Shown here piece by piece: positions 1 to 12,680 of a stretch of DNA of 12,680 nucleotides. This DNA comes from Gloeobacterales cyanobacterium. Lineage in GTDB: Bacteria; Cyanobacteriota; Cyanobacteriia; Gloeobacterales; PMM-0068. The translations under genes and the position numbers were made by a program. Numbering within the stretch: position 1 is the first letter of the stretch; each line of letters begins with the position of its first letter. The stretch spans positions 1 to 12,680 of the forward strand of contig JBBRSB010000052.1 in assembly GCA_038245785.1 (NCBI GenBank), in the 5' to 3' direction. The notes under the pieces are model-generated. The model made no database searches, was not told the origin of the DNA, and saw only the letters and a list, made by a program, of their open reading frames with translations.

Positions 1-209
1 CAGAAGGGACTTATCTAATCAACAGGCTCATCACCTAGACAGACAAACAGCCTCACTTCTGCCTCCCACTTCCTCTATAGGAAGTAGACCTGGAACCAGT
101 ATTACCTAGTTACCCAGTTAACTCTCAAGATACAAGACAGACTTTTTCAGCCCAAGATCCCTAAACTGGATGGTTAGACAGAGAAAGTCAGTCTAATAAA
201 TAGTTAGGC
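1..209 (+). mobile_element. attI: attI-like integron recombination site heading array 1 (left end probably outside the window)
   Basis: GTTAGAC(173-179)-agagaaagtca-GTCTAAT(191-197)-aaata-GTTAGGC(203-209). ATCTAATCAAC at 13-23 resembles ACCTAATCAAC in the intI-adjacent site (11033-11043). The crossover GTTAGGCGTC is the exact reverse complement of GACGCCTAAC (804-813) at the end of cassette 1. Confidence 0.75.
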
Positions 210-214
210 GTCAC

Positions 215-799
215 ATGACCACCGTTCACGATCATTGGCGCGAAGAACTCGTACGCATCATTCAGACGACGCCATGGTTCATGCAGGCGCTCAACGCCGC
301 AGGGTCGCTGCATCTGCAATCGTGGTGTATTGGAGCAGGCGCCGTCCGAAACTTGGTTTGGGACTACTTGCACGGCTTCACCCAACCTTCAACGCTCGCA
401 GATATAGACCTCGCCTACTTCGACCCAGATGACCTACGGCCTGAAACCGAGCAACAACTACAAGCCGAACTCGAAGCACGCTTCCCCAATTTCCCTTGGG
501 AAGTAACGAATCAAGCAGCAGTACACCTCTGGTTTGAAAGTCACTTTGGCCATCCTGCCTCTCCACTGAGCTCGTTGGAACAGGCTATTGCTTCGTGGCC
601 GGAATACGCCACGTCGGTCGGAATCACCATGAACCCTGACTCCAAAATCCATGTGGTTGCTCCTTACGGGCTTGAAGATCTTTTCGAGGTTAGAGTCCAG
701 CGCAACCCAGTGCGCGTGAGCAAGGAAACGTATCGCCAACGCAACGAGCAAAAACAGTACGCAAGTCGTTGGCCAAGAGTGACAGTCGTGCCGTGCTGA
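215..799 (+). CDS. Nucleotidyltransferase family protein (DUF925 / NTP_transf_6-like), gene cassette 1
   Basis: Motifs GAGAVRNLVWD, DIDLAYFD, WEVTNQAAVH and APYGLEDL are typical of this family. The ATG lies just after the GTTAGGC core site and the stop lies just before an attC. Confidence 0.85.
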   Translation: MTTVHDHWREELVRIIQTTPWFMQALNAAGSLHLQSWCIGAGAVRNLVWDYLHGFTQPSTLADIDLAYFDPDDLRPETEQQLQAELEARFPNFPWEVTNQAAVHLWFESHFGHPASPLSSLEQAIASWPEYATSVGITMNPDSKIHVVAPYGLEDLFEVRVQRNPVRVSKETYRQRNEQKQYASRWPRVTVVPC

Positions 800-806
800 G
801 AGCGAC

Positions 807-917
807 GCCTAACCCTTCCATCGAGCGGACTCGCACCGGCAGGGCGCTTCAGGCCCTCATTTCATTCTGGGCCTTACGCGCCCTGCCGGCGCGAGCCGCT
901 CATGTCAAACGTTATGC
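807..917 (+). mobile_element. attC: attC site of cassette 1 (111 bp)
   Basis: R'' GCCTAAC at 807-813 and R' GTTATGC at 911-917. The interior is a long imperfect palindrome (gagcggactcgcaccggcagggcgc ... gcgccctgccggcgcgagccgctc). Confidence 0.93.
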
Positions 918-926
918 ACCTTAAAC

Positions 927-1244
927 ATGAGTCTCGTCACTGAAATTGAATTTATCGACGATCCAGATGGTAAGTCATGCTTGGAAGGTCTCAACATACA
1001 ACTGCACGATTATTTGACAGATGACGCAGATTGGAATGCGGAGTACTGGGATTTTGAGTCTGAACACTTAAGAAGGTATTCGAAGATGATTGAGAACCTA
1101 TTCTCACAATCAGCCAATGGCCTCGAATTCCAAGCATTGTGGGTGGGCGAAAAACCAAGAACTATAATCGAACTGCCAATAGATAAGTTTCTAGAAGTTA
1201 TTGAGAGCAATAAGATTGCAACTGGAGGAAGATATGTTGTGTGA
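927..1244 (+). CDS. Hypothetical acidic protein, gene cassette 2
   Basis: The 105-aa ORF fills the space between GTTATGCAC (911-919) and its complement GTGCATAAC (1249-1257). No family recognised. Confidence 0.75.
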   Translation: MSLVTEIEFIDDPDGKSCLEGLNIQLHDYLTDDADWNAEYWDFESEHLRRYSKMIENLFSQSANGLEFQALWVGEKPRTIIELPIDKFLEVIESNKIATGGRYVV

Positions 1245-1250
1245 AAGAGT

Positions 1251-1307
1251 GCATAACAAATCGCCCCAGCCGGACGGCTTTGCCGCCGCTGGGCTCAATC
1301 GTTCTGC
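1251..1307 (+). mobile_element. attC: attC site of cassette 2 (57 bp)
   Basis: R'' GCATAAC at 1251-1257, stem gccccagccggacggc-ttt-gccgccgctgggc, R' GTTCTGC at 1301-1307. Confidence 0.9.
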
Positions 1308-1363
1308 CGCTTACGTTTTAGGTTGTGGCAGCGGTTTGAAGATCACTGGTGAGCAATAAAATA

Positions 1364-1393
1364 ACCTACCAAGATCGTAAGAAACTGGTAGGT
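1364..1393. terminator. Inverted repeat downstream of the inverted regulator gene; possible terminator
   Basis: ACCTACCA (1364-1371) ... TGGTAGGT (1386-1393), followed by a T-rich tract on the minus strand. Confidence 0.35.
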
Positions 1394-1424
1394 ATCACTA
1401 GTCTCATTCAGTTGTGAGTCTGGG

Positions 1425-2090
1425 TTAAACCGTCTCTGTCAGTTGATTGTTTAGGGCTTCAGCATCAATTTCGTAGCGTTGAAACAGTTCACTCAAAGCA
1501 GTTTTGTCTGTTTCGGCTAGTCGGACTAATCCCCACAGCAGATGTTCTGTTCCAATCGATTTCTTACCCTGAAGCCGAACAATTTGTAAAGCAAGCTCCA
1601 TTACGAATTTGCTTTTGGGGCTGAGTTTTTCACCCCCACGAGATTCAAAGGAATGCTCATTGATTTCGATATCTAGTGTCACACCATTGGCTCGAAGTAA
1701 TTGTGCTGAGGTTGTTGTTGGATCGGCTAACAAGCCTGCAAGCAGATGTTCTGGCTCGATTTGCAGGTGCTGCGATCGTAACGCCTCGTTTTGTGCAAAC
1801 TTGACCGCATTGATCGCCTTTTCAGTGAATCGCTCAAACCCAAACTCAAAGCCAAGAAAACTAGTAAATCGCTCAAGTAATGTTTGCATAGTGCTCTTTG
1901 CCTCGTAAATGAAGATGTTTTCAATTGCGACATGAAGCAGGTTGGCAAGTTTGAAAGCCATCTCTAGGCTGGGGTCAAACTTACCAGATTCAAATCCATT
2001 CACTGCTTGACGACTCACTCCTAATTCTCTAGCAAGGTCAGATTGTGAACATTGGTGAAGTTGTCGAAGTTCTTTCAGTCGGTTTTTCAT
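1425..2090 (-). CDS. XRE-family HTH regulator fused to a Clp N-terminal (Clp repeat) domain; inverted gene in cassette 3
   Basis: The N-terminus MKNRLKELRQ...SQSDLARELGVSRQAVNGFESGKFDPSLEMAFKLA is an HTH_3/XRE domain. The C-terminus FERFTEKAINAVKFAQNEA...IEPEHLLAGLL...IGTEHLLWGLV is two Clp-N repeats. Confidence 0.9.
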   Translation of the reverse strand: MKNRLKELRQLHQCSQSDLARELGVSRQAVNGFESGKFDPSLEMAFKLANLLHVAIENIFIYEAKSTMQTLLERFTSFLGFEFGFERFTEKAINAVKFAQNEALRSQHLQIEPEHLLAGLLADPTTTSAQLLRANGVTLDIEINEHSFESRGGEKLSPKSKFVMELALQIVRLQGKKSIGTEHLLWGLVRLAETDKTALSELFQRYEIDAEALNNQLTETV

Positions 2091-2106
2091 GTCTTTGCCT
2101 GCTTCA

Positions 2107-2160
2107 TGTCAAGTAACACTTTACATTCTTGTCAAGTGAATTGTCAAGTGTGGCTTGACA
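2107..2160 (-). promoter_or_regulatory. Putative promoter with tandem palindromic operators of the XRE-ClpN gene
   Basis: Perfect palindrome TGTCAAG-N5-CTTGACA at 2142-2160, near-copy TGTCAAG-N5-CTTTACA at 2107-2125, and an extra half-site at 2130-2136. On the minus strand, TTGACA (2147-2142) is followed 18 nt later by TAAAGT (2123-2118). Confidence 0.65.
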
Positions 2161-2212
2161 AAACATGTCTGTGATATCATTTGAAGAAGTTAAAAATCTT
2201 GCTTCCAGCGCG

Positions 2213-2299
2213 GCAGAACAACCCGGTTGGAGCGGACTTGCCAAGTTTATCGGTGTTGTGGCGAAGGTTATCGGTCGCCGCTCAACCGGAACGTTATGC
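2213..2299 (+). mobile_element. attC: attC site of cassette 3 (87 bp)
   Basis: R'' GCAGAAC at 2213-2219; GCGGCAGAAC is the exact complement of the cassette start GTTCTGCCGC (1301-1310). Arms ccggttggagcgg ... ccgctcaaccgg. R' GTTATGC at 2293-2299. Confidence 0.9.
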
Positions 2300-2414
2300 G
2301 GATTCCAAGTCGGCCAAACCAACGAAATAGAGGGATTCTTGCTATCTAGGAATCCATGTAAACGCCCTCATGGGGTGTTATGCGGACAGCAATCCGCATA
2401 AACAATAGTTAGGC
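2293..2414 (+). mobile_element. attI: ORF-less attI-like element embedded within array 1
   Basis: The left part gttatgcgga..tcggccaaaccaacgaaatag resembles attaggcgga..tctacctaatcaaccaaatag (11014-11050). The right part GTTATGC(2377)-ggacagcaatcc-GCATAAA-caata-GTTAGGC(2408-2414) has the same layout as 173-209 and 11055-11091. Confidence 0.7.
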
Positions 2415-2424
2415 GATTTCATCC

Positions 2425-3021
2425 ATGCGCGCAGTAATCTTCGACATCGACGGCACTCTCATTCACTCCAATAAAATCGATGACGATACGTACGCCTCTG
2501 TCGTTCACGATGTACTGGGACCTGTGCAACTCAGAAAGTCTTGGAGCCACTACAAAAACGTTTCTGGTTCCGGAACCCTCCTTGAAATTCTTGGTGACAA
2601 CAACATCCAAAATACTGCGGCTGTGCTGCGTGCCGTTGAGGAGGAATTTGTAGCTAGAATCTCCAGTCACATTGAAAACCACGGACCGATCATAGAGGTG
2701 CCAGGAGCAAAGGATTTTGTAAGTAGACTGGCGAGTTCAGCAGACTGCCAAATCGCCTATGCTACTGCCGGATGGTTTGCATCTGCTCGGATAAAATTGA
2801 AATCATCGCAGTTTCCAGTCGATGGGATACCCCTAGCGTCGTGCAACGATCACATCGACAAAGTCGCAATCATGACCCACGCGCTCAAACAACTCACTGC
2901 ACCGTTTGAATCAATTACATACTACGGAGACGGCGCGTGGGACAAGTCTACAGCCAGCGCGCTGGGTTGGAACTTCATCCCTGTGGGTGAGAAGCTAAAT
3001 GGTCTCCGGCACTTTCGTTAG
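2425..3021 (+). CDS. HAD-superfamily hydrolase, gene cassette
   Basis: Motif I FDIDGTL, motif II AT, motif IV YGDGAWD. It begins just after GTTAGGC (2408). Confidence 0.9.
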   Translation: MRAVIFDIDGTLIHSNKIDDDTYASVVHDVLGPVQLRKSWSHYKNVSGSGTLLEILGDNNIQNTAAVLRAVEEEFVARISSHIENHGPIIEVPGAKDFVSRLASSADCQIAYATAGWFASARIKLKSSQFPVDGIPLASCNDHIDKVAIMTHALKQLTAPFESITYYGDGAWDKSTASALGWNFIPVGEKLNGLRHFR

Positions 3022-3023
3022 TC

Positions 3024-3050
3024 ACCTAACATAGCCCCTGAGCCGGACGG
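3024..3050 (+). mobile_element. attC: Truncated attC (left arm only) after the HAD gene
   Basis: ACCTAAC-atagcccctgagccggacgg resembles the left arms of the other attCs and 12538-12565. There is no complementary arm and no GTT before the next ATG (3084). Confidence 0.65.
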
Positions 3051-3083
3051 ACGTAAAATGGAAAGAACCCAAACCTATTTCAT

Positions 3084-3500
3084 ATGAGTGAAACTGTCTA
3101 CATTGAAACCAGCATCTTGGGCTACCTTACTGCTCGACCAAGCAGGGATCTTGTTGTAGCTGCAAATATTGAGGTAAAGATGGAGTGGTGGGACACACGC
3201 CGCAGTAGCTTTTACCTCTACACTTCCCAAGCAGTCGTGAGAGAAGTCTCCCAAGGAGACACTGAACTCTCATCTCGACGCCTAGAAATCCTTCGCGATT
3301 TTTTGTTAGTAGACTTGAACCAATCGGTACTTAATTTAGCAGAGCAATTTTTGGAACGCAGTAACCTTCCCGCAAAAGCTGATGTTGATGCTGTTCACAT
3401 TGCCAATGCTCAGATTCAAAGGAAACTGTCAGCGATCAGCCTTGACTTTGGATACGAGTTGCCGATTCTTTTTACACCATATGAACTTCTTGGAGGTTAA
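3084..3500 (+). CDS. PIN-domain (VapC-like) toxin, apparently with an internal in-frame deletion
   Basis: VYIETSILGYLTARPSRD, YTSQAVVRE, DAVHIA and ILFTPYELLG match a PIN family common in cyanobacteria. The usual LLTWNCKH segment after DAVHIA is absent. Confidence 0.8.
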   Translation: MSETVYIETSILGYLTARPSRDLVVAANIEVKMEWWDTRRSSFYLYTSQAVVREVSQGDTELSSRRLEILRDFLLVDLNQSVLNLAEQFLERSNLPAKADVDAVHIANAQIQRKLSAISLDFGYELPILFTPYELLGG

Positions 3501-3502
3501 TT

Positions 3503-3730
3503 ATGTTTCAGGATGAGATTGTAGAAGAAATTCATAGAATTCGCGAAGAGTACTCTCGATCATTCAATCATGACTTGAAAGCAATCTTTGCTGATTTGCA
3601 AAAGCAGCAAGCTGAAAGTGGGAGAGAAGTTGTGAGTTTGTCGCGAGAACCTGGTCTAACAACACGGTGGAGCGGACGGGCGCGAGATCTTGGCGAGGAT
3701 GCAAAAGATGTTAGCCACCGCTCAACGTAG
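3503..3730 (+). CDS. Small partner protein of the PIN toxin (putative antitoxin); its C-terminus reads through the attC
   Basis: MFQDEIVEEIHRIREEYSRSFNHDLKAIFADLQKQQAESGREVVSL is typical of the small genes that follow this PIN family. It starts 2 nt after the PIN stop. Confidence 0.75.
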   Translation: MFQDEIVEEIHRIREEYSRSFNHDLKAIFADLQKQQAESGREVVSLSREPGLTTRWSGRARDLGEDAKDVSHRST

Positions 3731-3739
3731 CCGTTATGC
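3654..3739 (+). mobile_element. attC: attC site ending the TA cassette (86 bp); last clear attC of array 1
   Basis: R'' GTCTAAC at 3654-3660, arms acggtggagcgg ... ccgctcaacgt, R' GTTATGC at 3733-3739. Confidence 0.85.
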
Positions 3740-3996
3740 TGCGACCGTGCTTGGTCACACGCGTTGATTACAGTTACAAATTCTCTTATGGGCAATATCG
3801 ATACGTTACTAGAAAAGTTGGGCATGAAGCGTAGAATTCTGCTAAGACTACCCCACTTCCTCGCAGCCCCTCTGATGCTGACAATGCCACGACGATTGGC
3901 CATGTTATTTGCTGGATTTGCCAATTTGGCTCTGCTTGATTCTCCGCCTCCACAGATAACTAAAAGCTGCAAACAATTCACTAAATTCACCAAAAA

Positions 3997-4359
3997 TCAG
4001 GTCGTGTACCAATAGGCCCAAGCGATAAGCACTGCTTGAAAAGGCAAGCGAACCCATAAAGCTGTCGGGCTAATATTTGGAAATAAATCCGGATTGAGTG
4101 CCATGTGGAGATTAGCTGGAAATACTGCTATCAGTAATGCAATCAAGCCCCATCCCGCAATGCGGGTGAACTTTGGGACGATAACCATGATTCCCAAAAT
4201 AATCTCAAATACTCCACTCAGATAAACAAGAAATAGATGCCAAGGCAGATAGGGTGGCATCATCTTCAGATAAAAATCAACATTTAAAAAGTGGTTTGCC
4301 CCTGCTAAAACAAAGAAAATTGCTAGTAGGTACTGAAGGGCGAGCTTTAACTTGTCCAT
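3997..4359 (-). CDS. DoxX-family membrane protein
   Basis: FFVLAGANHF, MMPPYLPWH, SGVFEIILG, AVFPANLHMA and WVRLPFQ are DoxX-like motifs. About four hydrophobic segments. Confidence 0.85.
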   Translation of the reverse strand: MDKLKLALQYLLAIFFVLAGANHFLNVDFYLKMMPPYLPWHLFLVYLSGVFEIILGIMVIVPKFTRIAGWGLIALLIAVFPANLHMALNPDLFPNISPTALWVRLPFQAVLIAWAYWYTT

Positions 4360-4411
4360 TATTTCTTTTTAGACCACGATAAACACCTTTATACTCGAAC
4401 ACGACCGTAAA

Positions 4412-4446
4412 GCCAATACTGATTAGACGGCTGATTCGCAGGTATT
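4412..4446 (-). mobile_element. Degenerate attI-like box set upstream of the DoxX gene
   Basis: The minus strand reads CCGTCTAATCAGTA-TTGGC versus CAGTCTAAACAGTAGTTAGC (11071-11090). The G of GTT is missing. Confidence 0.4.
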
Positions 4447-4462
4447 GCTCACTTCAGTGATT

Positions 4463-5056
4463 TTAGTCTCTACCGCGCATTTTTCGCTTTAACTGTTGCA
4501 AGAAGGGGAATCTTAGAGGAGAGGTGCGTTTTAGCACACTGAAAGTATCTGACTTTAAATCTGTAAGCAACTCAGTATATTGACCTAATTCTTTCTCAGG
4601 TATATGCTTGTCTTCATCTTTTGTGCGAACGATCAATTCCTTATAGAACTGCTGAGATAATTCAATTTGAGAATGGATGCTATTGAGCTGTTTGATAAAT
4701 GAATTTTGTCCACTTTCTGATTCCCATGCCATGACTCTATCTAGAACGGTATCAAAGTCTTTGGGTAATAAGGGTGGGGTAGGTGGAGTCATTCTCTTCC
4801 AAGCGGTATCGATATCAAGCCCCCCTGCAGCGGTCTCTCTAGCTCCTGTTTTGAGTAAAACAGGAGCTACCTCAACAGGATTAATTTCAAGGTTGATGTA
4901 GATATTCTCTAAGACCAACCAAAGATGGGTGAACAGTTTCCGTTTCTCTTTCTCTTTAGCCCTGTATTCTTTTAACTCTGTCGTTAAGATACTTAGTAGC
5001 CAACCAACAAAAACAAGAACAATGTCCTCAACTGCTCTTATCGCTTCAGCATTCAT
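4463..5056 (-). CDS. Hypothetical protein with an N-terminal transmembrane helix
   Basis: 197-aa AT-rich ORF. IVLVFVGWLLSILTT is followed by a basic helix. No family recognised. Confidence 0.7.
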   Translation of the reverse strand: MNAEAIRAVEDIVLVFVGWLLSILTTELKEYRAKEKEKRKLFTHLWLVLENIYINLEINPVEVAPVLLKTGARETAAGGLDIDTAWKRMTPPTPPLLPKDFDTVLDRVMAWESESGQNSFIKQLNSIHSQIELSQQFYKELIVRTKDEDKHIPEKELGQYTELLTDLKSDTFSVLKRTSPLRFPFLQQLKRKMRGRD

Positions 5057-5134
5057 AGTGAATCACATCCTGAATCATGAGTTGCCACTGAAGTACTCCG
5101 ATGCGATAGAGCTGGATTAATCTCTATAGAGGGG

Positions 5135-5222
5135 AGCCACAACTACCGAGTATTTGCACGCACATATTACGTGGTATGTCACGCAAGAATTGAAATTGTA
5201 GCACCGACTAGGTAATGTGGCT
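5135..5222 (-). repeat. Imperfect inverted repeat resembling a degenerate att site upstream of the 197-aa gene
   Basis: AGCCACAACTACC (5135-5147) pairs with GGTAATGTGGCT (5211-5222). The minus strand reads ...tactcggtaGTTGTGGC, similar to ...taaacagtaGTTAGCC. Confidence 0.35.
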
Positions 5223-5331
5223 CAGTTCTTCTAGTTAGAACTATTGGCCACGATTTCTATAGAAATTGCTGAATTGTGTTTGGTATAAGGCAAATATCAA
5301 GCGCTTATGCCTAAAAGCTGAAGAGGAGAGG

Positions 5332-7146
5332 CTACATAGCCTCTGGTGCATGAATGCCTAGCAATCCCAATGCTGTGGCTAAAACCTGCTTCGCAGCTAC
5401 CATTAAAACCCCACGGGCATAGGCCAAGGGATCCTCAGCATTTTCACGGAGGAGGGGTAGAATCCGGCAGCGGTCATAGAACTTCATGAAGTCATTAGCC
5501 AGCTCTTCGCTGTAGCGCACCAGGATTTGAGGAGCCCGTTCTTCTGCCGCCCGACGAAACTGATCTGGGGCGTTGATCAGGTGCAGAATCAACGCTCTTT
5601 CCTCGGGGGTATTCAGGAGGAAACCAGAGGTTCCCATCAAAGTTTCCGGATTAAACTCAGTCCTGAGGTTGGCCAAGAATTTCTGCAGCTCAGGGTAGTG
5701 ACCGAGGTTTCTAAAAACGCTACAAGCTCGAGTATGGGCGTACTGGACGTAATAGACAGGGTTGTCCGTATCCCGTTTCACTGCCAAATCCAAGTCTAAA
5801 TTAACAGAGGAATCTGCCGACTGACCGAGAATGAACCATCGGGCTGCATCCGCTCCCACCGCATCTTCTGGACTATCAATGCCATAGATCAGGTCATCGA
5901 GGGTAATAAAGTTACCCGTGCGCTTAGACATGCGCACTTCTTCTTTTTTCCCTGTTTCCGGATTGAGCTTCAAAAGCTTGACCAGTTGACCAATGATAAT
6001 TTCCAGGTCTTCTGCCGGATGTCCCAGCGCTTGCACAGCTGCCTTTACCCTGGGCACATAGCCGTGGTGGTCCGCTCCCCAGATATTGATTAAAAGGTCA
6101 TAACCCCGTTCAAACTTCTCTCGATGGTAGGCAATGTCTGCCGCTAAATAGGTCAGAAGCCCATTAGAACGCTGGATAACCCGGTCTTTGTCATCACCAA
6201 ACTGAGCCGCTTTGAAAAATAAAGCGCCAGAGCCGCCTTCTTCGTCCGTTTCCCGCTCAACTTGGTCCGCTTGGGAGGTATCCGCCCGATAGAGCATTCC
6301 CCGCTTTTCTAAGTCATCGATCGCTTTCTGGACAATCCCTTCTGCGTGGAGGGTGCGCTCGGAGTACCAATGGTCAAATTCTGTACGAAAGGCAGCGAGG
6401 GTTTCTTTTTGCTGTAGAAGTAGGTGTTCGTAGGCGTAGTCCGTGAACCAGTCCACGGGAGCAGAAGCTTTTAGATCTTTCCATTCTGTAATTAGGGTCT
6501 GGGCCAAATCCTTGATGTAGTCCCCTTGATAACCTTTTTCCGGCATCGTCGCTTCATAGCCCAATGCCTGAAGATAACGGACGCCCAAAGATTGCCCAAG
6601 GAGGCTCATCTGGTTACCCGCATCATTAATGTAGAACTCGGTAGTAACTTCATGGCCCGCAAAGCGCAGGATGTTGGCCAAGGTAGAACCAATAGCTGCC
6701 CAACGCCCATGCCCTACATGGAGAGGACCTGTAGGATTGGCGGAAACGAATTCTAAAAGAATCTTTCTTGGTTTGGCTGGAATGGTTCTGCCATAGTCGG
6801 GACCTTGCTTCAAAATTAGCGCTAGCTGCTGGGTAAGCAGACGGTCTTGGACTTTGAAGTTGATAAATCCAGGTCTTGCCACTTCTGCCGTAAAACCCGA
6901 TTGGTCCAGATTTTCCACCAAAGTTTCCGCAATCTTGAAAGGATTCAATCCAGCTGGTTTCGCCAGTGAAAGAGCGATCGGACTGGCATAATCTCCGAAC
7001 GTTGGATTCTTGGGAGGCTGGAAGACGACTTCGGCCTCAGCAGGAATTTGGGCTAACTGGCCTAGTTGCCCCGCTTCAAAAGCTTTTTGGAGGGCAACAT
7101 AGAGCGTCTGCCGGAGCTGGTCCTGGAATGTCTGGCCTATTAGCAT
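5332..7146 (-). CDS. argS: Arginine--tRNA ligase
   Basis: FGDYAS, EFVSANPTGPLHVGHGR (HIGH motif), EFYINDAGNQM, YLAADIAYH, WGADHHGY, MSKRTG, NPVYYVQYAHTR, and C-terminal LLGIHAPEAM. Confidence 0.98.
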   Translation of the reverse strand: MLIGQTFQDQLRQTLYVALQKAFEAGQLGQLAQIPAEAEVVFQPPKNPTFGDYASPIALSLAKPAGLNPFKIAETLVENLDQSGFTAEVARPGFINFKVQDRLLTQQLALILKQGPDYGRTIPAKPRKILLEFVSANPTGPLHVGHGRWAAIGSTLANILRFAGHEVTTEFYINDAGNQMSLLGQSLGVRYLQALGYEATMPEKGYQGDYIKDLAQTLITEWKDLKASAPVDWFTDYAYEHLLLQQKETLAAFRTEFDHWYSERTLHAEGIVQKAIDDLEKRGMLYRADTSQADQVERETDEEGGSGALFFKAAQFGDDKDRVIQRSNGLLTYLAADIAYHREKFERGYDLLINIWGADHHGYVPRVKAAVQALGHPAEDLEIIIGQLVKLLKLNPETGKKEEVRMSKRTGNFITLDDLIYGIDSPEDAVGADAARWFILGQSADSSVNLDLDLAVKRDTDNPVYYVQYAHTRACSVFRNLGHYPELQKFLANLRTEFNPETLMGTSGFLLNTPEERALILHLINAPDQFRRAAEERAPQILVRYSEELANDFMKFYDRCRILPLLRENAEDPLAYARGVLMVAAKQVLATALGLLGIHAPEAM

Positions 7147-7168
7147 GATGAACTCAACCTAAACCTAA

Positions 7169-8164
7169 TCAAGACACAGGGGTCTTGGTACTTAATTGTT
7201 CCATAGTCACTTGAGCGATCCGTTGAGGCTTGATCTCTGCAATCGACTTTTGGTCCTGCAAAGGAATAAATCGCAGGGATTTAGGCAACAGCTGTACTAA
7301 ATTCCCAGGACCAAAAAGTGCCACCAGAGGCGTATTGGTTGCCACCGCAAGGTGCATCGGAGCACTGTCCACGCAGAGTAAAAGTTTTGCAGACTGGATC
7401 AGGGCTGTTAGAGAACCAAGGTCCGGCGGGCTAATAAACAGCACTTGATTGCCCAATTGCTCTTTTAGCTGCGCAGCAAATTGCTTATCCTCTGGCCCTT
7501 GAATCACAGCAAACTGGAGTTTTTGGTTCTTGGTTTTATCCATTAGATTCTGCAAGACCTGGCCCCATAGTTCGGTGGGATAGGGCCTTTGCACTTCATT
7601 TTTGGCCGAAAGCGTACCCGCCCCAGGATAAAGAAGCACCAGCTTGCCGGGTTCTATTTGGCGTTTTTCAAGCTCCTGGGCCATCCAAGTCTTGGCCTTC
7701 TCAGGAATGAGGGCTTGGGGGAGAGATCCCTCCTGCTTGACACCCACTCCCTTGGCGAGGTCATGGTACATCAAGGCCGCGTATTGATCTCGGCGCAAAG
7801 TAATTGGATTGGTTAGCAAGCGCTCTGTAAAATTGCCCGCATAGCCAATCCGGCGGGGAATACCTGTGAGCCAGAGCAAGAACCCATCTCCAGCTGAACG
7901 TCCGCTAGAAAGCACCACATCGTAATCCCGTTCCCGAATTTGACCAATGAGGTTGACCCAATCCGCAAGGCTAGGCTTACCACTAAAGCTGAAAGGAATA
8001 GTTTTGATTGGAACGGGACAAACTTGATAGGCTGCCGCCGCGCTCGGCTCTACTAAAACTTCTATAGATGCTGTCGGGAAAGCCTCCCGGATTCCTTGTA
8101 GAGTGGGAAAAAAGAGGATCTGGTCCTCAACTCCTCCCGGATTAATGGCTAGAAGGCGGAACAT
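7169..8164 (-). CDS. Glycosyltransferase family 9 protein (ADP-heptose:LPS heptosyltransferase-like)
   Basis: PGGVEDQILFFPTL, GIPRRIGY and DSAPMHLAVATNTPLVALFGP. It ends 22 nt upstream of argS, so the two are probably co-transcribed. Confidence 0.9.
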   Translation of the reverse strand: MFRLLAINPGGVEDQILFFPTLQGIREAFPTASIEVLVEPSAAAAYQVCPVPIKTIPFSFSGKPSLADWVNLIGQIRERDYDVVLSSGRSAGDGFLLWLTGIPRRIGYAGNFTERLLTNPITLRRDQYAALMYHDLAKGVGVKQEGSLPQALIPEKAKTWMAQELEKRQIEPGKLVLLYPGAGTLSAKNEVQRPYPTELWGQVLQNLMDKTKNQKLQFAVIQGPEDKQFAAQLKEQLGNQVLFISPPDLGSLTALIQSAKLLLCVDSAPMHLAVATNTPLVALFGPGNLVQLLPKSLRFIPLQDQKSIAEIKPQRIAQVTMEQLSTKTPVS

Positions 8165-8331
8165 CTTGTCTACAGAGTGGAATTACCTATTCATCTTAAG
8201 GGTTTCTAGCCGTTTCTTAGTGTGATTTGCGACCATATAGGATTTGAGCATGTATAACAGAGGGCTGACTGCAAGGCGTAGCGTCGGAAGACTCGGTACA
8301 CTAAATAGATCTACCTGTATAGCGATTTGTC

Positions 8332-8631
8332 GTGAAGCCTTTAGAAATTCTGATTTGGTTTTTCCTTCAACCTCTGCTGGGCTTAGGCATTCTTGCCTTT
8401 ATTCTCCGGTTGATTATGACCTGGTTCCCGCAAATAGACCTGAATAAGTTTCCCTACAACTTGATTGCCTGGCCGACAGAGCCCTTTTTACGCCCAACGC
8501 GCAAGCTGATTCCCAGTTTTGGCGGCGTGGACATAACCCCTTTCATCTGGTTTGCGATTCTCAGCTTCATCCGCGAAATTTTGCTGGGTCAGCAGGGAAT
8601 TTTGACCATGATGACCCGCCTTCAAGGCTAA
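8332..8631 (+). CDS. YggT-family protein, CCB3-like (cytochrome b6f heme ci assembly factor)
   Basis: PTEPFLRPTRKLIPSFGGVDITPFIW...EILLGQQGIL matches YggT. The EILxGxQG tail is characteristic of the CCB3 subgroup of oxygenic phototrophs. GTG start. Confidence 0.85.
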   Translation: MKPLEILIWFFLQPLLGLGILAFILRLIMTWFPQIDLNKFPYNLIAWPTEPFLRPTRKLIPSFGGVDITPFIWFAILSFIREILLGQQGILTMMTRLQG

Positions 8632-8703
8632 GGTTCGTCGTCTCATATCAGAAACATTCGTTTACAATGTGGCTATCCGCTATTTAAGAAGATCAGGAAG
8701 GCT

Positions 8704-9582
8704 ATGACTGTAACCTATCCCAAGAGACTTTATGGGACCATCAGCACTCAGCAGATGGTGGACATGGTGATCAAAGACCGTGAAATCCATTTAATAACCC
8801 TGAATCGTTACCGCTACTCCGAGCAGCGGAGCTGTAAGGATTTGACGGAAGTGATTGAGCGTTTAGATGGTCAGCCACGTGAACTGATTAAGGACCTTTC
8901 CAACCACGTTCGGGAAGAAGCTCAGCACGCTTTCTGGTTGACAGATTTGATTCTTGAGCTTGGTGGCGATCTAGGGACGCCTCCTGGCCCTTCCTACATT
9001 GACGAGTATGAAAAATATGTGGGTAGTGGTTCCATAGATGTAATTGAGACCTTGGCAGCGATCAATGTCACAGAAAAGCGCGGCTGTAACTTTTTCTCGG
9101 CCCACATCAAGGCCCTGAAAAATGCAGAACAGACGGAAGACAATATCAAAATTCGTGAATGCATCGAGCGGATCTTCCCTGAAGAAGCGAATCATGTGCG
9201 CTGGGGCAACCGCTGGCTGGCTACCCTGGCTAAGGAAAGCCCTGAAAATGCGCGCAAGGTAGAAGAAGCGAAACGCAAGTATGATGCCATTGAAAATGCA
9301 GCTTTTGAAGCGGGGATGGACATCACCCTCGGAGCCGAACTGCGTCGCTTTAACCGCCTGATTGAAATCTCGGAAACGCTTCCGATTTGGGAACGACCTC
9401 AGTATATGGCAGAGCAACTTCCTCGCTTGATTCCTGATGTCACCAAAGCTCGTTTCGGCACAGCCCGCATGGTCTTCGAAAGAAATCCTGCAGACTTTGT
9501 CCAGCGATTTATTCCGATGGTTATGGGGTTGAGTAAACAGCAGGCTAAGAAAGCAGAAACGAAAGTCCCTGCGACTGTTTAA
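8704..9582 (+). CDS. Ferritin-like domain (di-iron carboxylate) protein
   Basis: Two ExxH motifs (EEAQH, EEANH), each preceded by a helix carrying a Glu (YSEQRSC, VTEKRGC). RBS-like AGGAAGG before the ATG. Confidence 0.8.
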   Translation: MTVTYPKRLYGTISTQQMVDMVIKDREIHLITLNRYRYSEQRSCKDLTEVIERLDGQPRELIKDLSNHVREEAQHAFWLTDLILELGGDLGTPPGPSYIDEYEKYVGSGSIDVIETLAAINVTEKRGCNFFSAHIKALKNAEQTEDNIKIRECIERIFPEEANHVRWGNRWLATLAKESPENARKVEEAKRKYDAIENAAFEAGMDITLGAELRRFNRLIEISETLPIWERPQYMAEQLPRLIPDVTKARFGTARMVFERNPADFVQRFIPMVMGLSKQQAKKAETKVPATV

Positions 9583-9601
9583 GTTTGCACGAATGAATTG
9601 C

Positions 9602-9628
9602 AATCTCCTCTGCACAGGGGAGATTTTT
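9602..9628 (+). terminator. Hairpin between convergent genes; probable intrinsic terminator
   Basis: AATCTCCTC-tgcaca-GGGGAGATT followed by a T-run, between the stops at 9582 (+) and 9628 (-). Confidence 0.65.
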
Positions 9629-10446
9629 CATGCGTCTTGCCCTACGGGTCCTACGGCGCTCTCAGAGGACAGTCGATGGTATGCAAATGTTCCTCTGACA
9701 CTATTAATGAAGAATATAAGGAACAAGACAGCCGCCGTCACTGCCCCTGCTCTGGACGCTAACGTGTCCAACAGTTGCGGCTGTGAAAACTGGTGCATCT
9801 CATAAAGAATAAATAAACACAGTCCCGCAGTTGCAAAAACCTTTGAGCGGCGTTTGACTCCCCATGCAACCACACCAAACAACAACACCTCAAGGTAAGC
9901 CCAGATGTCGATTGTTCCGCTACCCAACAGGAGAATAAGTGCGACGAATAGGGATTTAACTACGGTGAGGAATACGGCAGCCCAGAAGCCTTGATTAGAG
10001 GTTGAGACGGCGGCTGGTAGATCAACTATCTTGGGCCAGAACCAATAGCCTATGTCCGTTTCGGGCGACAGTCGATGAAAGGCAAAGGTGCCTCTTACTC
10101 CGTTAATGTAGAAGACGAGGAGAAGGAAAGCGTATATGGGCAGTGACACTAGCGGAGTCGTTTGAGGTACTGAAATCGGGTACGCCTCCGCAAAAATATA
10201 TAAACATAGCCCAGCGATAGCAAAGGTTCTTGAGCGACGTTTGATCCGCCATGCAATCACGCCAAACAAAACCGTATACAGATAAGCCCCAGAGCTGAAC
10301 GGACATTGATTGATGAGTGCGACTATGGCTGGCATTACGGCACAAGATACGGCGGACCAGAAGCCTTGATCAGAGGCGGAGACTGCACCTGGTGCATCAA
10401 CGATCTTGGGCCAGAACAAATTCCCTTTGTTCGTTTCGATAGTCAC
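9628..10446 (-). CDS. Hypothetical multi-pass membrane protein made of two tandem ~125-aa repeats
   Basis: FWPKIVD..AVS.S.QGFW.AV, LFGV.AW..KRRS..FA.AGLCL and IN.VRGTFA.HRLS.E each occur twice. GTG start. Confidence 0.8.
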   Translation of the reverse strand: MTIETNKGNLFWPKIVDAPGAVSASDQGFWSAVSCAVMPAIVALINQCPFSSGAYLYTVLFGVIAWRIKRRSRTFAIAGLCLYIFAEAYPISVPQTTPLVSLPIYAFLLLVFYINGVRGTFAFHRLSPETDIGYWFWPKIVDLPAAVSTSNQGFWAAVFLTVVKSLFVALILLLGSGTIDIWAYLEVLLFGVVAWGVKRRSKVFATAGLCLFILYEMHQFSQPQLLDTLASRAGAVTAAVLFLIFFINSVRGTFAYHRLSSESAVGPVGQDA

Positions 10447-10467
10447 AACAAATTTCCCATGCTTGAT

Positions 10468-10480
10468 GCATAACGTTTGA
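10468..10480 (-). mobile_element. Probable attC right-end remnant (R') upstream of the repeat membrane gene
   Basis: The minus strand reads TCAAAC-GTTATGCA, identical to the end of the cassette-1 attC (905-918), about 20 nt before the start codon. Confidence 0.5.
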
Positions 10481-10742
10481 ATTCAATTGAGGAATAGCCA
10501 TCGGCTGGAATGAATTGTGCATTTACCTGATGTACTTACAGTTCTCTCAATCAAGTATTCCCAAGGCACTCTGGAATCATATGTTTTTCTAGTAAAGACA
10601 ACAGCTGATAATTCTAGAAGTATGTTGCCAAAGTCAGTCCAATATCCGCTCTGCGATCAATCTGCCTCACTCAACATTGGCACTCTAGAGCATGATAAAC
10701 CAGTGAGACATGCACCATATTCACTTTTACACCTCAATTAAG

Positions 10743-10882
10743 TTAATGTGTATGCCGTTTATCGTGAAAAGGATGTAGCAGCGAATCCACTGCACATAGG
10801 TTTCTTCAGTGCGGTAGGAGTAATGTTTGGCACGAATGGCATCGCGCACTTGGTCAAGAAGCTTTTTGGATGGAGTTTGAAT
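10743..10882 (-). pseudogene. intI: Integron integrase 5' remnant (N-terminal domain only; no ATG, frameshifted)
   Basis: Manual translation gives IQTPSKKLLDQVRDAIRAKHYSYRTEETYVQWIRCYILF, then HDKRH after a 1-nt frameshift. This is the hallmark IntI N-terminus (LLDQVR..IR.KHYS.RTE..Y..WI..YI.FH.KRHP). ATT stands at the expected start, no catalytic domain follows, and it is divergent from an attI and cassette array. Confidence 0.9.
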
Positions 10883-10894
10883 AGATGGTCTGGT

Positions 10895-10913
10895 GGGTTA
10901 TGAATCATAACCC
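10895..10913. promoter_or_regulatory. Perfect palindrome just upstream of intI
   Basis: GGGTTATGA-A-TCATAACCC, 12 nt from the presumed intI start. Confidence 0.4.
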
Positions 10914-10974
10914 TGAGCTAGAGGTGATTAAGATTTTGTACATAAGAATGACTTCATCCTTGAAAAAAGCGATT

Positions 10975-11091
10975 ATTAGGCTGACAATTTCCACCTAGTC
11001 TTCCCAGGAGCTGATTAGGCGGACGAATTTCTACCTAATCAACCAAATAGGGAAGATATGCAGAAAAGTTCAGTCTAAACAGTAGTTAGCC
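10975..11091 (+). mobile_element. attI: attI site of the decayed integron, with three inverted box pairs
   Basis: ATTAGGC..ACCTAGT (10975-10999), ATTAGGC..ACCTAAT (11014-11039), GATATGC..GTCTAAA (11055-11079), then the core GTTAGCC (11085-11091), which complements GGCTAAC at 11778. It lies between intI and the first cassette. Confidence 0.8.
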
Positions 11092-11105
11092 ATCCACAAC
11101 AAGCT

Positions 11106-11783
11106 ATGAAGATTCAGTTCGACAACACCATAAAAGCTGGTGACATACTCACATCGCTGACTATAGCGCTCTCTGTGATAGCTCTCGTTCTGTCACTGGC
11201 AAAGGATCGTGAAATCAAAACGGCGGATCAGGGAAATAAGATCCGAAGTGCTGCTGCAAGTGCAATCGTTAAGCTCGACCGCTGGCAGAGTGTTCAATTG
11301 TCCCTGTACCAAGAGCTTCAACCTTCTTTTGTAGAGACGAGCGAATTGCTGGCGCAGAAGTACGATGTTGTGGTTGCCAGAGATAAGTTCTGGCGACAGG
11401 TTAATGAAGAACGAACACGGATTTCTCATCAGGTGCTAGAAGAACAGCTCGGCACAGCCTACCTGGACATCCTTTCTCATTTTCCCGCCGCAAAAGTTAA
11501 GTATGTTGAATCTTTTACAAAGCTCGCAGCTGTCGAAGATGAAGTTTCGAATGAGTTCTTAGGCGGATCTGAACAGGAGATCTTAAATCTAGAAGATAAG
11601 CAGGCAAACTATTAGACGGCTGTCCTTGGAAATGCCTTTCGGGCGCAAGCGAAAAAGAGTTCCTCGGAACTAAAGAAGAAGTCCAAAGATGTCATTGCAC
11701 CCGTACGAAACTATCTTTTGAAGGTAATTGAGTTGCCTGATGAAAAGATCATCAATGCTAGTCGCAGCAACCGAGACGGCTAA
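11106..11783 (+). pseudogene. Cassette gene (N-terminal TM, helical) interrupted by an in-frame TAG at 11613-11615
   Basis: The frame stays open after the TAG (TAVLGNAFRAQAKKSSSELKKKSKDVIAPVRNYLLKVIELPDEKIINASRSNRDG) to a TAA at 11781-11783 inside the attC R'' GGCTAAC. Total length is 226 codons. Confidence 0.8.
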
Positions 11784-11835
11784 CCCTTCGTTCCAACGGA
11801 CTGCCTTCAGCCGATGCTGACCTTTGCCGTTAGCC
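11778..11835 (+). mobile_element. attC: attC site of the first cassette of array 2 (58 bp)
   Basis: R'' GGCTAAC at 11778-11784 and R' GTTAGCC at 11829-11835. The interior (ccttcgttccaacggactgccttcagccgatgctgacctttgcc) has the typical short attC layout, slightly degenerate. Confidence 0.85.
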
Positions 11836-12000
11836 CTCCTCCTTCAGCCGAGTTTATAGTTCACTTCCGATGGTTTGTGGGTGGCAAAGTGTTGCTGAGC
11901 GGAGATGGGGTGAGTGGGGGGATCGCCTTTTCACAATACTGAACTTCACGCTTGATAGGCCGTCTGAACAAGGTCTTATAATAAGCTACGATTTAGACCC

Positions 12001-12009
12001 TGCTAGAAT
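12001..12009 (+). promoter_or_regulatory. Putative extended -10 promoter of the TA pair
   Basis: TG-c-TAGAAT lies 8 nt before the ATG at 12018. A TATAAT is also present at 11977-11982. Confidence 0.4.
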
Positions 12010-12017
12010 TATTTGAA

Positions 12018-12254
12018 ATGCCTACTCTTCTGACTGTTGGTCCATATCGGTTTTTCTGCTACGCAGGGGATCGAGATGAGCCACCCCACGTACATGTTGA
12101 ACGCGATAAGGACGAAGCTAAGTTCTGGCTTAGCCCAGTCCGTCTTCAAAATAACAAGGGTTTTAACCGCACAGAGATAAATCGTATCCAAAAGCTGGTT
12201 GAAGAACACCAAGAACAATTGATAGAGGGTTGGAATGACTTCTTTAACGGTTGA
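12018..12254 (+). CDS. DUF4160 domain protein (putative TA component)
   Basis: MPTLLTVGPYRFFCYAGDRDEPPHVHVERD..EAKFWL.PV.L..N.GF...E...I...V.E......EGWNDFF. Confidence 0.88.
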   Translation: MPTLLTVGPYRFFCYAGDRDEPPHVHVERDKDEAKFWLSPVRLQNNKGFNRTEINRIQKLVEEHQEQLIEGWNDFFNG

Positions 12255-12543
12255 CCTATTCGAAGTACCCAAGATACAGACCATTGAGATCACAGATGAT
12301 ACTTTGTCTGTCGATCTATCTGACGGTCGCACTATTTCTGTCCCGCTGGCATGGTATCCGCGTCTCTTGCATGGTTCAGTGGAAGAAAGAAATAGCTGGC
12401 GGTTAATTGGTAGTGGAGACGGAATCCATTGGAATCAACTTGACGAAGATGTCAGTGTCAAGAACATAATCCTTGGGCAATCATCAGGGGAAAGTCAGAA
12501 ATCATTCCAACGATGGCTAAACGAGCGTCAATCAACGGTCTAA
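12235..12543 (+). CDS. DUF2442 domain protein (putative TA partner)
   Basis: LSVDLSDGRTISVPLAWYPRL....EERNSW.LIG.GDGIHW..LDEDVSV. It overlaps the DUF4160 gene, and its stop lies in GTCTAAC. Confidence 0.88.
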   Translation: MTSLTVDLFEVPKIQTIEITDDTLSVDLSDGRTISVPLAWYPRLLHGSVEERNSWRLIGSGDGIHWNQLDEDVSVKNIILGQSSGESQKSFQRWLNERQSTV

Positions 12544-12630
12544 CATAGTCCCTGAGGTGGACGGGAGTCAAGAGCAAACGCTGAACTTCTCTTCCTATCT
12601 TCCTAATTGCATTACAGGGATTATTAGGGC
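12538..12630 (+). mobile_element. attC: Degenerate attC after the DUF2442 gene
   Basis: R'' GTCTAAC (12538-12544) followed by atagtccctgaggtggacgg. A possible partner arm CAGGGATTATTAGG (12615-12628) lacks the GTT. Confidence 0.5.
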
Positions 12631-12680
12631 GCAAGAAATCTGTCTATTGTTAAACGATGAAGTCTCAATTCGGTCTCAAC

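Follow-up and report, generated by a model that had tools for sequence, protein, structure and literature searches.

An integron, in its textbook form, consists of one integrase and one attI site. Arrays of attC-bounded cassettes that lack a nearby integrase gene (attC clusters that are devoid of an integron integrase, CALINs) are, to our knowledge, treated as attI-free, since attI sequences are known for few classes only. A 12,680-nt stretch of DNA from a Gloeobacterales cyanobacterium (assembly GCA_038245785.1, contig JBBRSB010000052.1), hereafter the window, raises the question of how three attI-like sites come to lie in a single contig whose only integrase sequence is a 35-codon stub, and to which integrase gene (intI) they belong. 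A preliminary description of this DNA had taken the sites for members of a dispersed family of attI copies, seeding several arrays around housekeeping genes and open to service by an integrase (IntI) encoded elsewhere. The window is the entire contig C52 of a 5.0-Mb genome assembled in 255 contigs, with an estimated contamination of 1.42%; positions on the other contigs are given with the contig number. The reading that we favour, and consider likely, is that the window holds three attI sites with three separate histories: one would be part of a live integron split by an insertion sequence (IS), one would stem from the fusion of two arrays, and one would be left over from a decayed integron.

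Anatomy of the three sites

As the preliminary description had pointed out, the three sites share a terminal module. At site 1 (138-209, plus strand), which retains the terminal 1.5 modules of a type that we call family A, the module reads TTAGAC-N11-GTCTAA-N6-GTTAG (174-207). The box TTAGAC occupies positions 174-179, the L box GTCTAA positions 191-196 and the R box GTTAGGC positions 203-209, placing the predicted crossover between G203 and T204. Site 2 (2294-2414, plus strand), a truncated member of family F devoid of an open reading frame (ORF), has box pairs at 2293-2317 and 2377-2402, the sequence TTATGC-N12-GCATAA-N6-GTTAG at 2378-2412 and its predicted crossover at G2408/T2409. Site 3 (10905-11091, plus strand), of family B, comprises three box pairs (about 10973-11007, 11013-11040 and 11055-11078). 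In its terminal stretch (11055-11091), the GTCTAA-N6-GTTAG part is intact, with the L box at 11073-11078 and the R box GTTAGCC at 11085-11091 (predicted crossover at G11085), and the first box is degenerate (GATATGC). The window contains three matches to the pattern GYMTAA-N6-GTTAG, whereas 200 shuffled sequences gave 0.01 on average and never as many as three; this comparison is post hoc, the pattern having been derived from the same three sites. Similarly, a profile built from 29 sites of the genome detects sites 1, 2 and 3 in a search of the window with E values of 7e-11, 1.4e-9 and 3.5e-7, all three being part of its training set. Independently of both, BLAST recovered the family across contigs, with E values down to 1e-80, and in other genomes.

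Other elements listed in the preliminary description fared less well. Degenerate copies had been reported on the minus strand at 4412-4446 and near 5143, and on the plus strand at 12623-12648. The profile places these at chance level, with a match of E 1.3 at 4414-4436 (minus strand) and none at 5143 or on the plus strand of 12623-12648, the latter segment being part of an IS described below (ISb). An upstream module resembling CYAAYCAAC had been assigned to all three sites; strict matches are found at 15-23 and 11035-11043, and also at 5000-5008, but not at 2313-2323, and the segment proposed for site 1 (13-23) lies inside another IS (ISa). Sites 2 and 3 do have an upstream arm in common, CAAC-[C/G]AAATAG-GGGA.

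All three sites end exactly at a cassette boundary. At sites 1 and 3, the attC that follows has an R'' box exactly complementary to the R box of the site (GCCTAAC, 807-813, and GGCTAAC, 11778-11784, respectively). At site 2, the match is with ACCTAAC at 3024-3030, covers six of seven positions and is not followed by a complete attC. Genome-wide, an exact 7-mer complement of the R box lies within 3.5 kb of 11 of 29 sites, against about six expected by chance (3500/16384 per site), so that this feature is weak when taken alone; a fold-based attC finder, which recovered part of the model matches described below, was used for this check only. Copies were also compared within each family. Identity ranges between 0.54 and 0.93 over positions -40 to -1 relative to the crossover and falls to the random level (0.20-0.26) over positions +7 to +46. 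Similarity thus stops at the crossover G|TT in every family, which is the behaviour of a recombination junction.

To see how this compares with the surroundings of complete integrase genes, we searched 40 relatives with the intact IntI of this genome and, for 14 related loci, inspected the DNA upstream of intI. What is, by eye, the same layout recurs at ten of them, namely several inverted box pairs about 40 bp apart, the last of which is followed by N5-6 and GTTRRRY; the IntI proteins of these ten share 67-79% identity with the query. Because this layout recurs at related intI loci and similarity ends at G|TT, we regard sites 1 to 3, on sequence grounds, as genuine attI sites. They possess the core of an L box, a spacer and an R box of the form GTTRRRY, with G|TT closing the conserved sequence, and repeated box pairs are plainly present upstream. 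A position between a divergent intI and the first cassette is found for site 3, by virtue of the stub, and for site 1, through the IS discussed below; no intI was found for site 2. The preliminary description was thus right in naming the family attI and in calling the site modular. Altogether, the attI of these cyanobacteria would span 150-230 bp and be built from modules of about 40 bp, three to six of them in tandem. A module would be made up of two integrase-type boxes in inverted orientation (ATTAGRC / GYCTAAT or variants), 11-12 bp apart, and the last pair would be followed by N5-6 and by the R box G|TTRRRY, the presumed joining point for cassettes.

Histories of the three sites

The genome contains 16 matches to the integron integrase model TIGR02249. 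A single one, C2:301-1257, exceeds the cut-off of 265 (479-480 bits) and is stop-free; this intact intI lies outside the window. Its connection to site 1 runs through ISa, a member of the IS110 family. The long stretch of noncoding DNA upstream of the ISa transposase has its outer part at positions 1-137 of the window (minus strand), positions 1-142 being 93% identical to positions 1119-1260 of a complete copy of 1.3 kb (C7:26236-27520). The transposase of this copy, a DEDD enzyme of the RNA-guided kind, scores 220.8 bits with NF033542 (cut-off 140) and also matches PF01548 and PF02371. The opposite end of ISa is found, with 100% identity, at C2:3-106. On C2, the attI modules stop at ...GGGTGATTAGA, where the IS begins; the window resumes at CAGACTTTTTCAGCC, the junction between ISa and site 1 being ...CAAGA|CAGAC. 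Joining the two halves restores an uninterrupted family A layout, as seen at C7:26065, and the same register pairs C53 with C9:131235. Synteny leads independently to the same arrangement: in a genome of the same genus (G001), the orthologue of window positions 3999-5070, on the DoxX side, lies 30 nt from a 3.1-kb region that is 80% identical to C2:1306-4452, a segment beginning 46 nt behind intI.

Since the IS ends, the register of the modules and the synteny with G001 agree, we assign site 1 to the C2 integrase: on this evidence, the only intact intI has an attI split by ISa, site 1 being the distal part of that attI and not an intI-less copy as supposed in the preliminary description. The order would be mgtE side, intI, left part of attI, ISa, window positions 138-209, five cassettes and DoxX. 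Site 1 would then be the working end of the C2 attI, separated from intI by an IS specific for the box GATTAGR^CAGAC. Indeed, all three ISa copies, as well as a 26-nt relic (C12:107144-107169), sit at this very point of an attI box; the copies and pieces are at window positions 1-137, C7:26236-27520, C2:3-106, C53:12494-12597 and C9:131243-131396. The noncoding end of ISa holds target-like strings within window positions 15-23 and 35-45: TCTAATC (15-21) and TAGACAGAC (37-45) are similar to the two strands of the GATTAGACAGAC target. Such strings would fit a guide RNA of the IS110/IS1111 type; a search of the window and of the ISa copy against Rfam gave no match. As this case illustrates, fragmented assemblies can make a live integron appear orphaned.

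Site 2 presents a different junction. The R' box GTTATGC (2293-2299) of the preceding attC (2213-2299) doubles as the first box of the site, and the site 2 unit begins exactly at this box. BLAST revealed no second copy of the 121-bp unit in this genome. A homologue with 83% identity is present in one (G263) of 300 genomes sampled from the class, where two or three more modules lie upstream. Thus, between attC 2213-2299 and a cassette for a HAD hydrolase, the 3' end of a unit within an array is formed by a partial attI in place of an attC. In this respect site 2 resembles a ΔattI unit: its truncated attI is joined to an attC through the first box. Recombination of an attC with a G|TTATGC box in the upstream part of a second attI, and with it the fusion of two arrays, could have produced this unit. 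We also considered site 2 as a folded attC and rejected this candidate: it gave no model match, and the folding of its bottom strand (-17.8 kcal/mol, z -2.76) leaves the R box unpaired. A listed ORF of 78 amino acids (2165-2401), which runs across attC 2213-2299 into site 2, has no family match and is probably no gene.

The remains of an intI lie about 215 nt upstream of the site 3 crossover. The stub (10766-10870, minus strand) corresponds to codons 5-39 (35 codons) of the intact C2 gene, with 86% identity at the protein level. In G001 and in G002, likewise of the same genus, longer intI fragments (amino acids 36-178 and 103-184, respectively) adjoin the orthologue of the DUF455 gene; they are cut by a contig end, and the C-terminal half is absent. 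Because the fragments differ between these genomes, the integron of site 3 appears to be old, fixed at the DUF455 locus and decaying differently in each species. Site 3 would therefore be the attI of an integron that is older, lies at the DUF455/ArgRS locus and retains, after decay, 35 codons of its intI.

Survival of N-terminal stubs of 30-80 codons beside attI is a recurrent sight. Besides the one in the window (10766-10870), this genome has stubs at C3:222895-222984, C17:44345-44437 and C9:406-522, and others are found in relatives (G029:C73, G024:C4, G019:C10, G015:C54 and G036:C172). In class 1 integrons, the cassette promoter lies inside the 5' end of intI, and retention of the stubs could by analogy reflect a putative cassette promoter in the same place. 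A promoter scan of positions 10700-11110 yielded one site against 1.0 expected and is uninformative on this point. An attempt at assigning the stubs to IntI lineages by blastx was abandoned, given how short they are and that every relative obtains a similar score.

The two arrays headed by these sites have the same orientation and flank core genes, as judged from ORFs and family searches: ArgRS (5332-7146, minus strand), a family-9 glycosyltransferase and DUF455. Two covariance models for attC (R1 and R2) were built from sites in the window and elsewhere in the genome; with these the window attCs score 52-86 bits, and they fold as canonical bottom-strand hairpins. The models replaced a hand-written expression for the left half of attC, which had returned 142 scattered matches and one of the five window attCs (the ISb-like relic at 3024).

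Array 1 (138-3739, plus strand) contains five cassettes, all on the plus strand, and four full attCs (807-917, 1251-1307, 2213-2299 and 3654-3739). The first cassette (204-917) carries an NTP_transf_6 ORF (215-799; PF06042, E 5.9e-56) and an attC scoring 62-78 bits (807-917), the second (912-1307) an ORF of 105 amino acids with no family match (927-1244) and a short attC (1251-1307). In the third (1302-2299), which ends in attC 2213-2299, a gene with HTH_3 and Clp_N domains (1425-2090, minus strand) is in reverse orientation and presumably has its own putative promoter region. The fourth (2409-3055), directly downstream of site 2, encodes the HAD hydrolase (2425-3021) and ends without an attC detectable by either covariance model. 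Instead, the R''-like box ACCTAAC (3024-3030) is followed by a stretch (3031-3050) matching the end of ISb at 17 of 20 positions, and the 30 nt comprising box and stretch (3021-3050) are 90% identical to C8:135677-135706. Positions 3024-3055 may thus be the relic of an ISb-like insertion and a deletion. The fifth cassette (3056-3739) has two ORFs with no family match (3084-3500 and 3503-3730) and closes the array with attC 3654-3739. Between this attC and DoxX lies a frame of 83 amino acids (3764-4015), by impression the C-terminal piece of a LysR-type regulator, with no match in Pfam. At the corresponding spot in G001, both the whole integron and the LysR-like piece are missing and mgtE abuts DoxX.

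Array 2 (10766-12544) comprises the intI stub, site 3, one full attC and a final cassette with an interrupted attC. Its first cassette (11086-11835, plus strand) has an ORF at 11106-11615 and ends in attC 11778-11835, the one whose R'' is complementary to the site 3 R box. The second (11830-12544, plus strand) encodes DUF4160 (12018-12254) and DUF2442 (12235-12543) and terminates with the R'' box GTCTAAC (12538-12544). Immediately behind this box the window ends in ISb (12545-12680), a second IS110-family element, of which the window keeps noncoding DNA located downstream of the transposase gene. At either end, then, the contig breaks off in an IS that sits at an integron site. The ISb segment is identical to ends on C8, C30 and C45. 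The transposase of the C45 copy scores 175 bits with NF033542 (cut-off 140). Three of the four copies (window 12545-12680, C45:1-1448, C8:135682-135822 and C30:64742-64881) lie directly after RYYYAAC (GTCTAAC, ACCTAAC or GCATAAC), the fourth after TGAAC in an hsdM-like frame.

Dispersed copies and the reach of one integrase

Iterated BLAST and motif searches identified 33 attI-like loci in the genome, which fall into six sequence families (A-E, and F represented by site 2); families were assigned, and several boxes called, by eye. Of these loci, 29 possess the terminal module, with GTT kept at the crossover in 23 and lost in six. Clear evidence of intI, in the divergent orientation expected, exists at seven of the 33: the intact gene linked through ISa, a broken gene on C8, four stubs (site 3, C3, C17 and C9:174) and a stub of about ten codons linked through ISa (C53 with C9:131235). 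Four further loci have weak traces (E 0.004-0.13), and about 22 show no trace of intI within 1.5 kb. An attC in the right orientation (model R2, E <0.01) follows at least 12 of the 33 loci; attC counts are lower bounds, as 150 of 670 candidates were scored in the whole-genome model search and several sites abut contig ends. The multiplication of the site proposed in the preliminary description is thus borne out, with 33 loci and one intI above the cut-off, and intI-less copies occur in complete relatives as well. From their sequence, the loci appear to be mostly platforms that lost, or never had, an intI of their own.

Among family D sites, C25:44710, C38:23505 and C5:57746 head clear attC arrays, with six model matches following C38:23505. 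One family D site is located 280 nt behind, and in the same orientation as, a gene for a Xer-like tyrosine recombinase (C25:43401-44432), which scores 69 bits with TIGR02249, below the cut-off of 265.

Three closed genomes with one intact intI each (G020, G028 and G033) were chosen for comparison; they are kin and do not count as independent cases. In G020, a single contig with one match to intI, the attI linked to this gene has four intI-less counterparts, whose identity to it is 99, 99, 99 and 90%. The resemblance extends as far as the crossover, beyond which each of the five copies continues with a different sequence; an attC is found within 1.5 kb downstream of two of the four. The four intI-less copies have at least 300 nt of upstream flank in common and lie beside IS1-like elements. 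At loci L072-L075 and L098-L101 of this genome, a YAAC box, which the bottom strand reads as GTTRRRY, immediately precedes the left boundary of the repeated attI unit. A leftward ORF also accompanies the copies that lack intI, two of which have an oppositely oriented attC upstream; cassettes may have been joined on both sides of attI here. Three intI-less copies are present in G028; they agree in the terminal module, differ in R box or downstream sequence, and exceed the intI-linked copy in their number of modules. G033 has one intI-less copy, at 97% identity.

Could the intI-less sites be live docking sites, at which a single IntI works dispersed arrays in trans? This idea adds to our reading of the window without replacing it, and we regard it as possible but somewhat doubtful. 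It is favoured by the near-identical G020 copies with their different downstream sequences, by the conserved terminal modules and varied R boxes or downstream regions in G028, and by the G033 copy. In the present genome, the same can be said of three family A copies that are intI-less or have a stub only (C7:26065, C9:131235 and C75:4258), which share the last 20 nt of site 1 and have different first cassettes, and of the GTT kept at the crossover of most sites. On the other hand, the cassettes may date from a time when each copy had its own intI, or result from rearrangement, and the common flank and IS1-like neighbours of the G020 copies make an IS-mediated duplication possible. Moreover, GTT is lost at six sites, the cognate attI is itself split by an IS, and the six families differ in their box sequences and are accompanied by traces of several intI lineages, which makes it unlikely that one integrase serves them all. 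In its full form, the proposal would be that of distributed cyanobacterial integrons, in which one IntI serves intI-less multi-module attI copies, attI units spread via their outer G|TT boxes, and IS110 elements have evolved to home to the boxes. We hold this extended version, too, for conceivable rather than probable. Spread via an outer box would fit the left end of site 2, where the unit starts at G|TTATGC, and the left boundary of the G020 units after the YAAC box. Near-identical sites with different cassettes make it testable whether one enzyme captures cassettes at several places of a chromosome.

The multi-box repeats might alternatively be small repeats, mobile or structural, comparable to miniature inverted-repeat transposable elements or repetitive extragenic palindromes, or simply a homing target of IS110-family elements, lying near integrons by coincidence. 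The modules are indeed palindromic, tandem and dispersed, and all three ISa copies and the relic sit in them. Yet their ends coincide exactly with G|TT cassette boundaries, at 10 of 14 related loci they occupy the interval from intI to the first cassette, and in this genome they are accompanied by intI, broken intI or stubs in divergent orientation (7 of 33) and followed by properly oriented attCs (12 of 33); the idea is largely refuted, and we consider it very improbable. That three AT-rich intergenic stretches should resemble each other by accident is hardly credible at all: the pattern was defined after the sites had been seen, but three matches against 0.01 expected and the independent BLAST recovery refute it.

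The preferred reading, of three attI sites with separate histories, is itself not free of difficulties, and the following points weigh against it. With an assembly in 255 contigs, the link from C2 through ISa to the window was pieced together and not read through. The array fusion proposed for site 2 is deduced from one junction. Binding of IntI to the boxes and recombination at G|TT are both deduced from sequence. The case for family D as attI is weaker than for the others, there being no IntI nearby and, in one instance, a Xer-like recombinase instead. Finally, decay alone leaves unexplained the intI-less G020 copies of 90-99% identity with different downstream sequences, which point to ongoing use.

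Relation to known integrons and insertion sequences

A search of the literature on cyanobacterial attI and on intI-less or multiple attI sites returned no description of dispersed attI copies. The closest counterpart is attI1 of class 1 integrons, a site of 65 bp described, in the account available to us, as comprising the L and R boxes of a simple site and two repeats in direct orientation (DR1, DR2), and as having four IntI1-binding regions (PMC12901181). Set against that account, the sites reported here are alike in that an inverted L box is separated by a short spacer from an R box GTTRRRY, crossover falling after G, in that integrase-type boxes are found upstream, and in their position between intI and the first cassette. 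They differ in their length (150-230 bp), in the presence of three to six inverted-pair modules of about 40 bp in place of two direct repeats, in a number of modules that varies between copies, and in the many copies per genome.

The attI site of most integrons is described as unknown, and hence unsearchable, in the available part of a survey that defines CALINs as attC clusters without an integron integrase and reports intI pseudogenes near 15 of 279 of them (Cury et al. 2016, PMC4889954). The present lineage provides a searchable attI architecture, and with it many intI-less arrays turn out to retain their docking site. Like the CALINs of that survey, they are cassette arrays without a nearby intact intI. 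Unlike them, they are headed by a recognisable attI, and several keep a short N-terminal intI stub; some of the attI sites have no detectable attC.

Site 2 recalls the ΔattI-type cassettes in integrons of classes 1 and 2, which have the structure attC-...-ΔattI with a ΔattI of up to 244 nt and, in the portion of the source at hand, are reported to be excised and inserted by IntI1 (PMC12901181). Here too, a partial attI lies within an array right after an attC-bounded unit. As far as that source allows a comparison, site 2 is distinct in having no ORF between attC and ΔattI, in belonging to a chromosomal cyanobacterial integron and in having as its left end its own upstream box, G|TTATGC.

Both IS elements of the window have relatives among seekRNA-guided elements, in which, in the part of the source available, the noncoding region is placed upstream of the transposase gene in the IS110 type and downstream in the IS1111 type (PMC11187229). 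In these terms, ISa is like the former and ISb like the latter. The same source describes, in the part available, an IS1111-attC group with sequence-specific DEDD transposases, the known members of which insert at one attC end (PMC11187229). Insertion of ISb after the R'' box of attC corresponds to the behaviour reported there. ISa is unlike that group in that its target is an attI box and not attC, and in that a guide RNA is suggested by target-like strings. No attI-targeting IS110 element was found in the literature on IS110 and attI; ISa adds an IS homing to attI boxes to those known to target attC.

Finally, cassettes can also be inserted into genomes outside att sites, at positions named attG in the available part of the report (bioRxiv 10.1101/2022.09.11.507474). 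The arrays described here resemble those insertions in placing cassettes away from the integrase's own platform; whereas attG, as presented in that part, is minimal, the dispersed sites of this cyanobacterium have the complete architecture of a multi-module attI.

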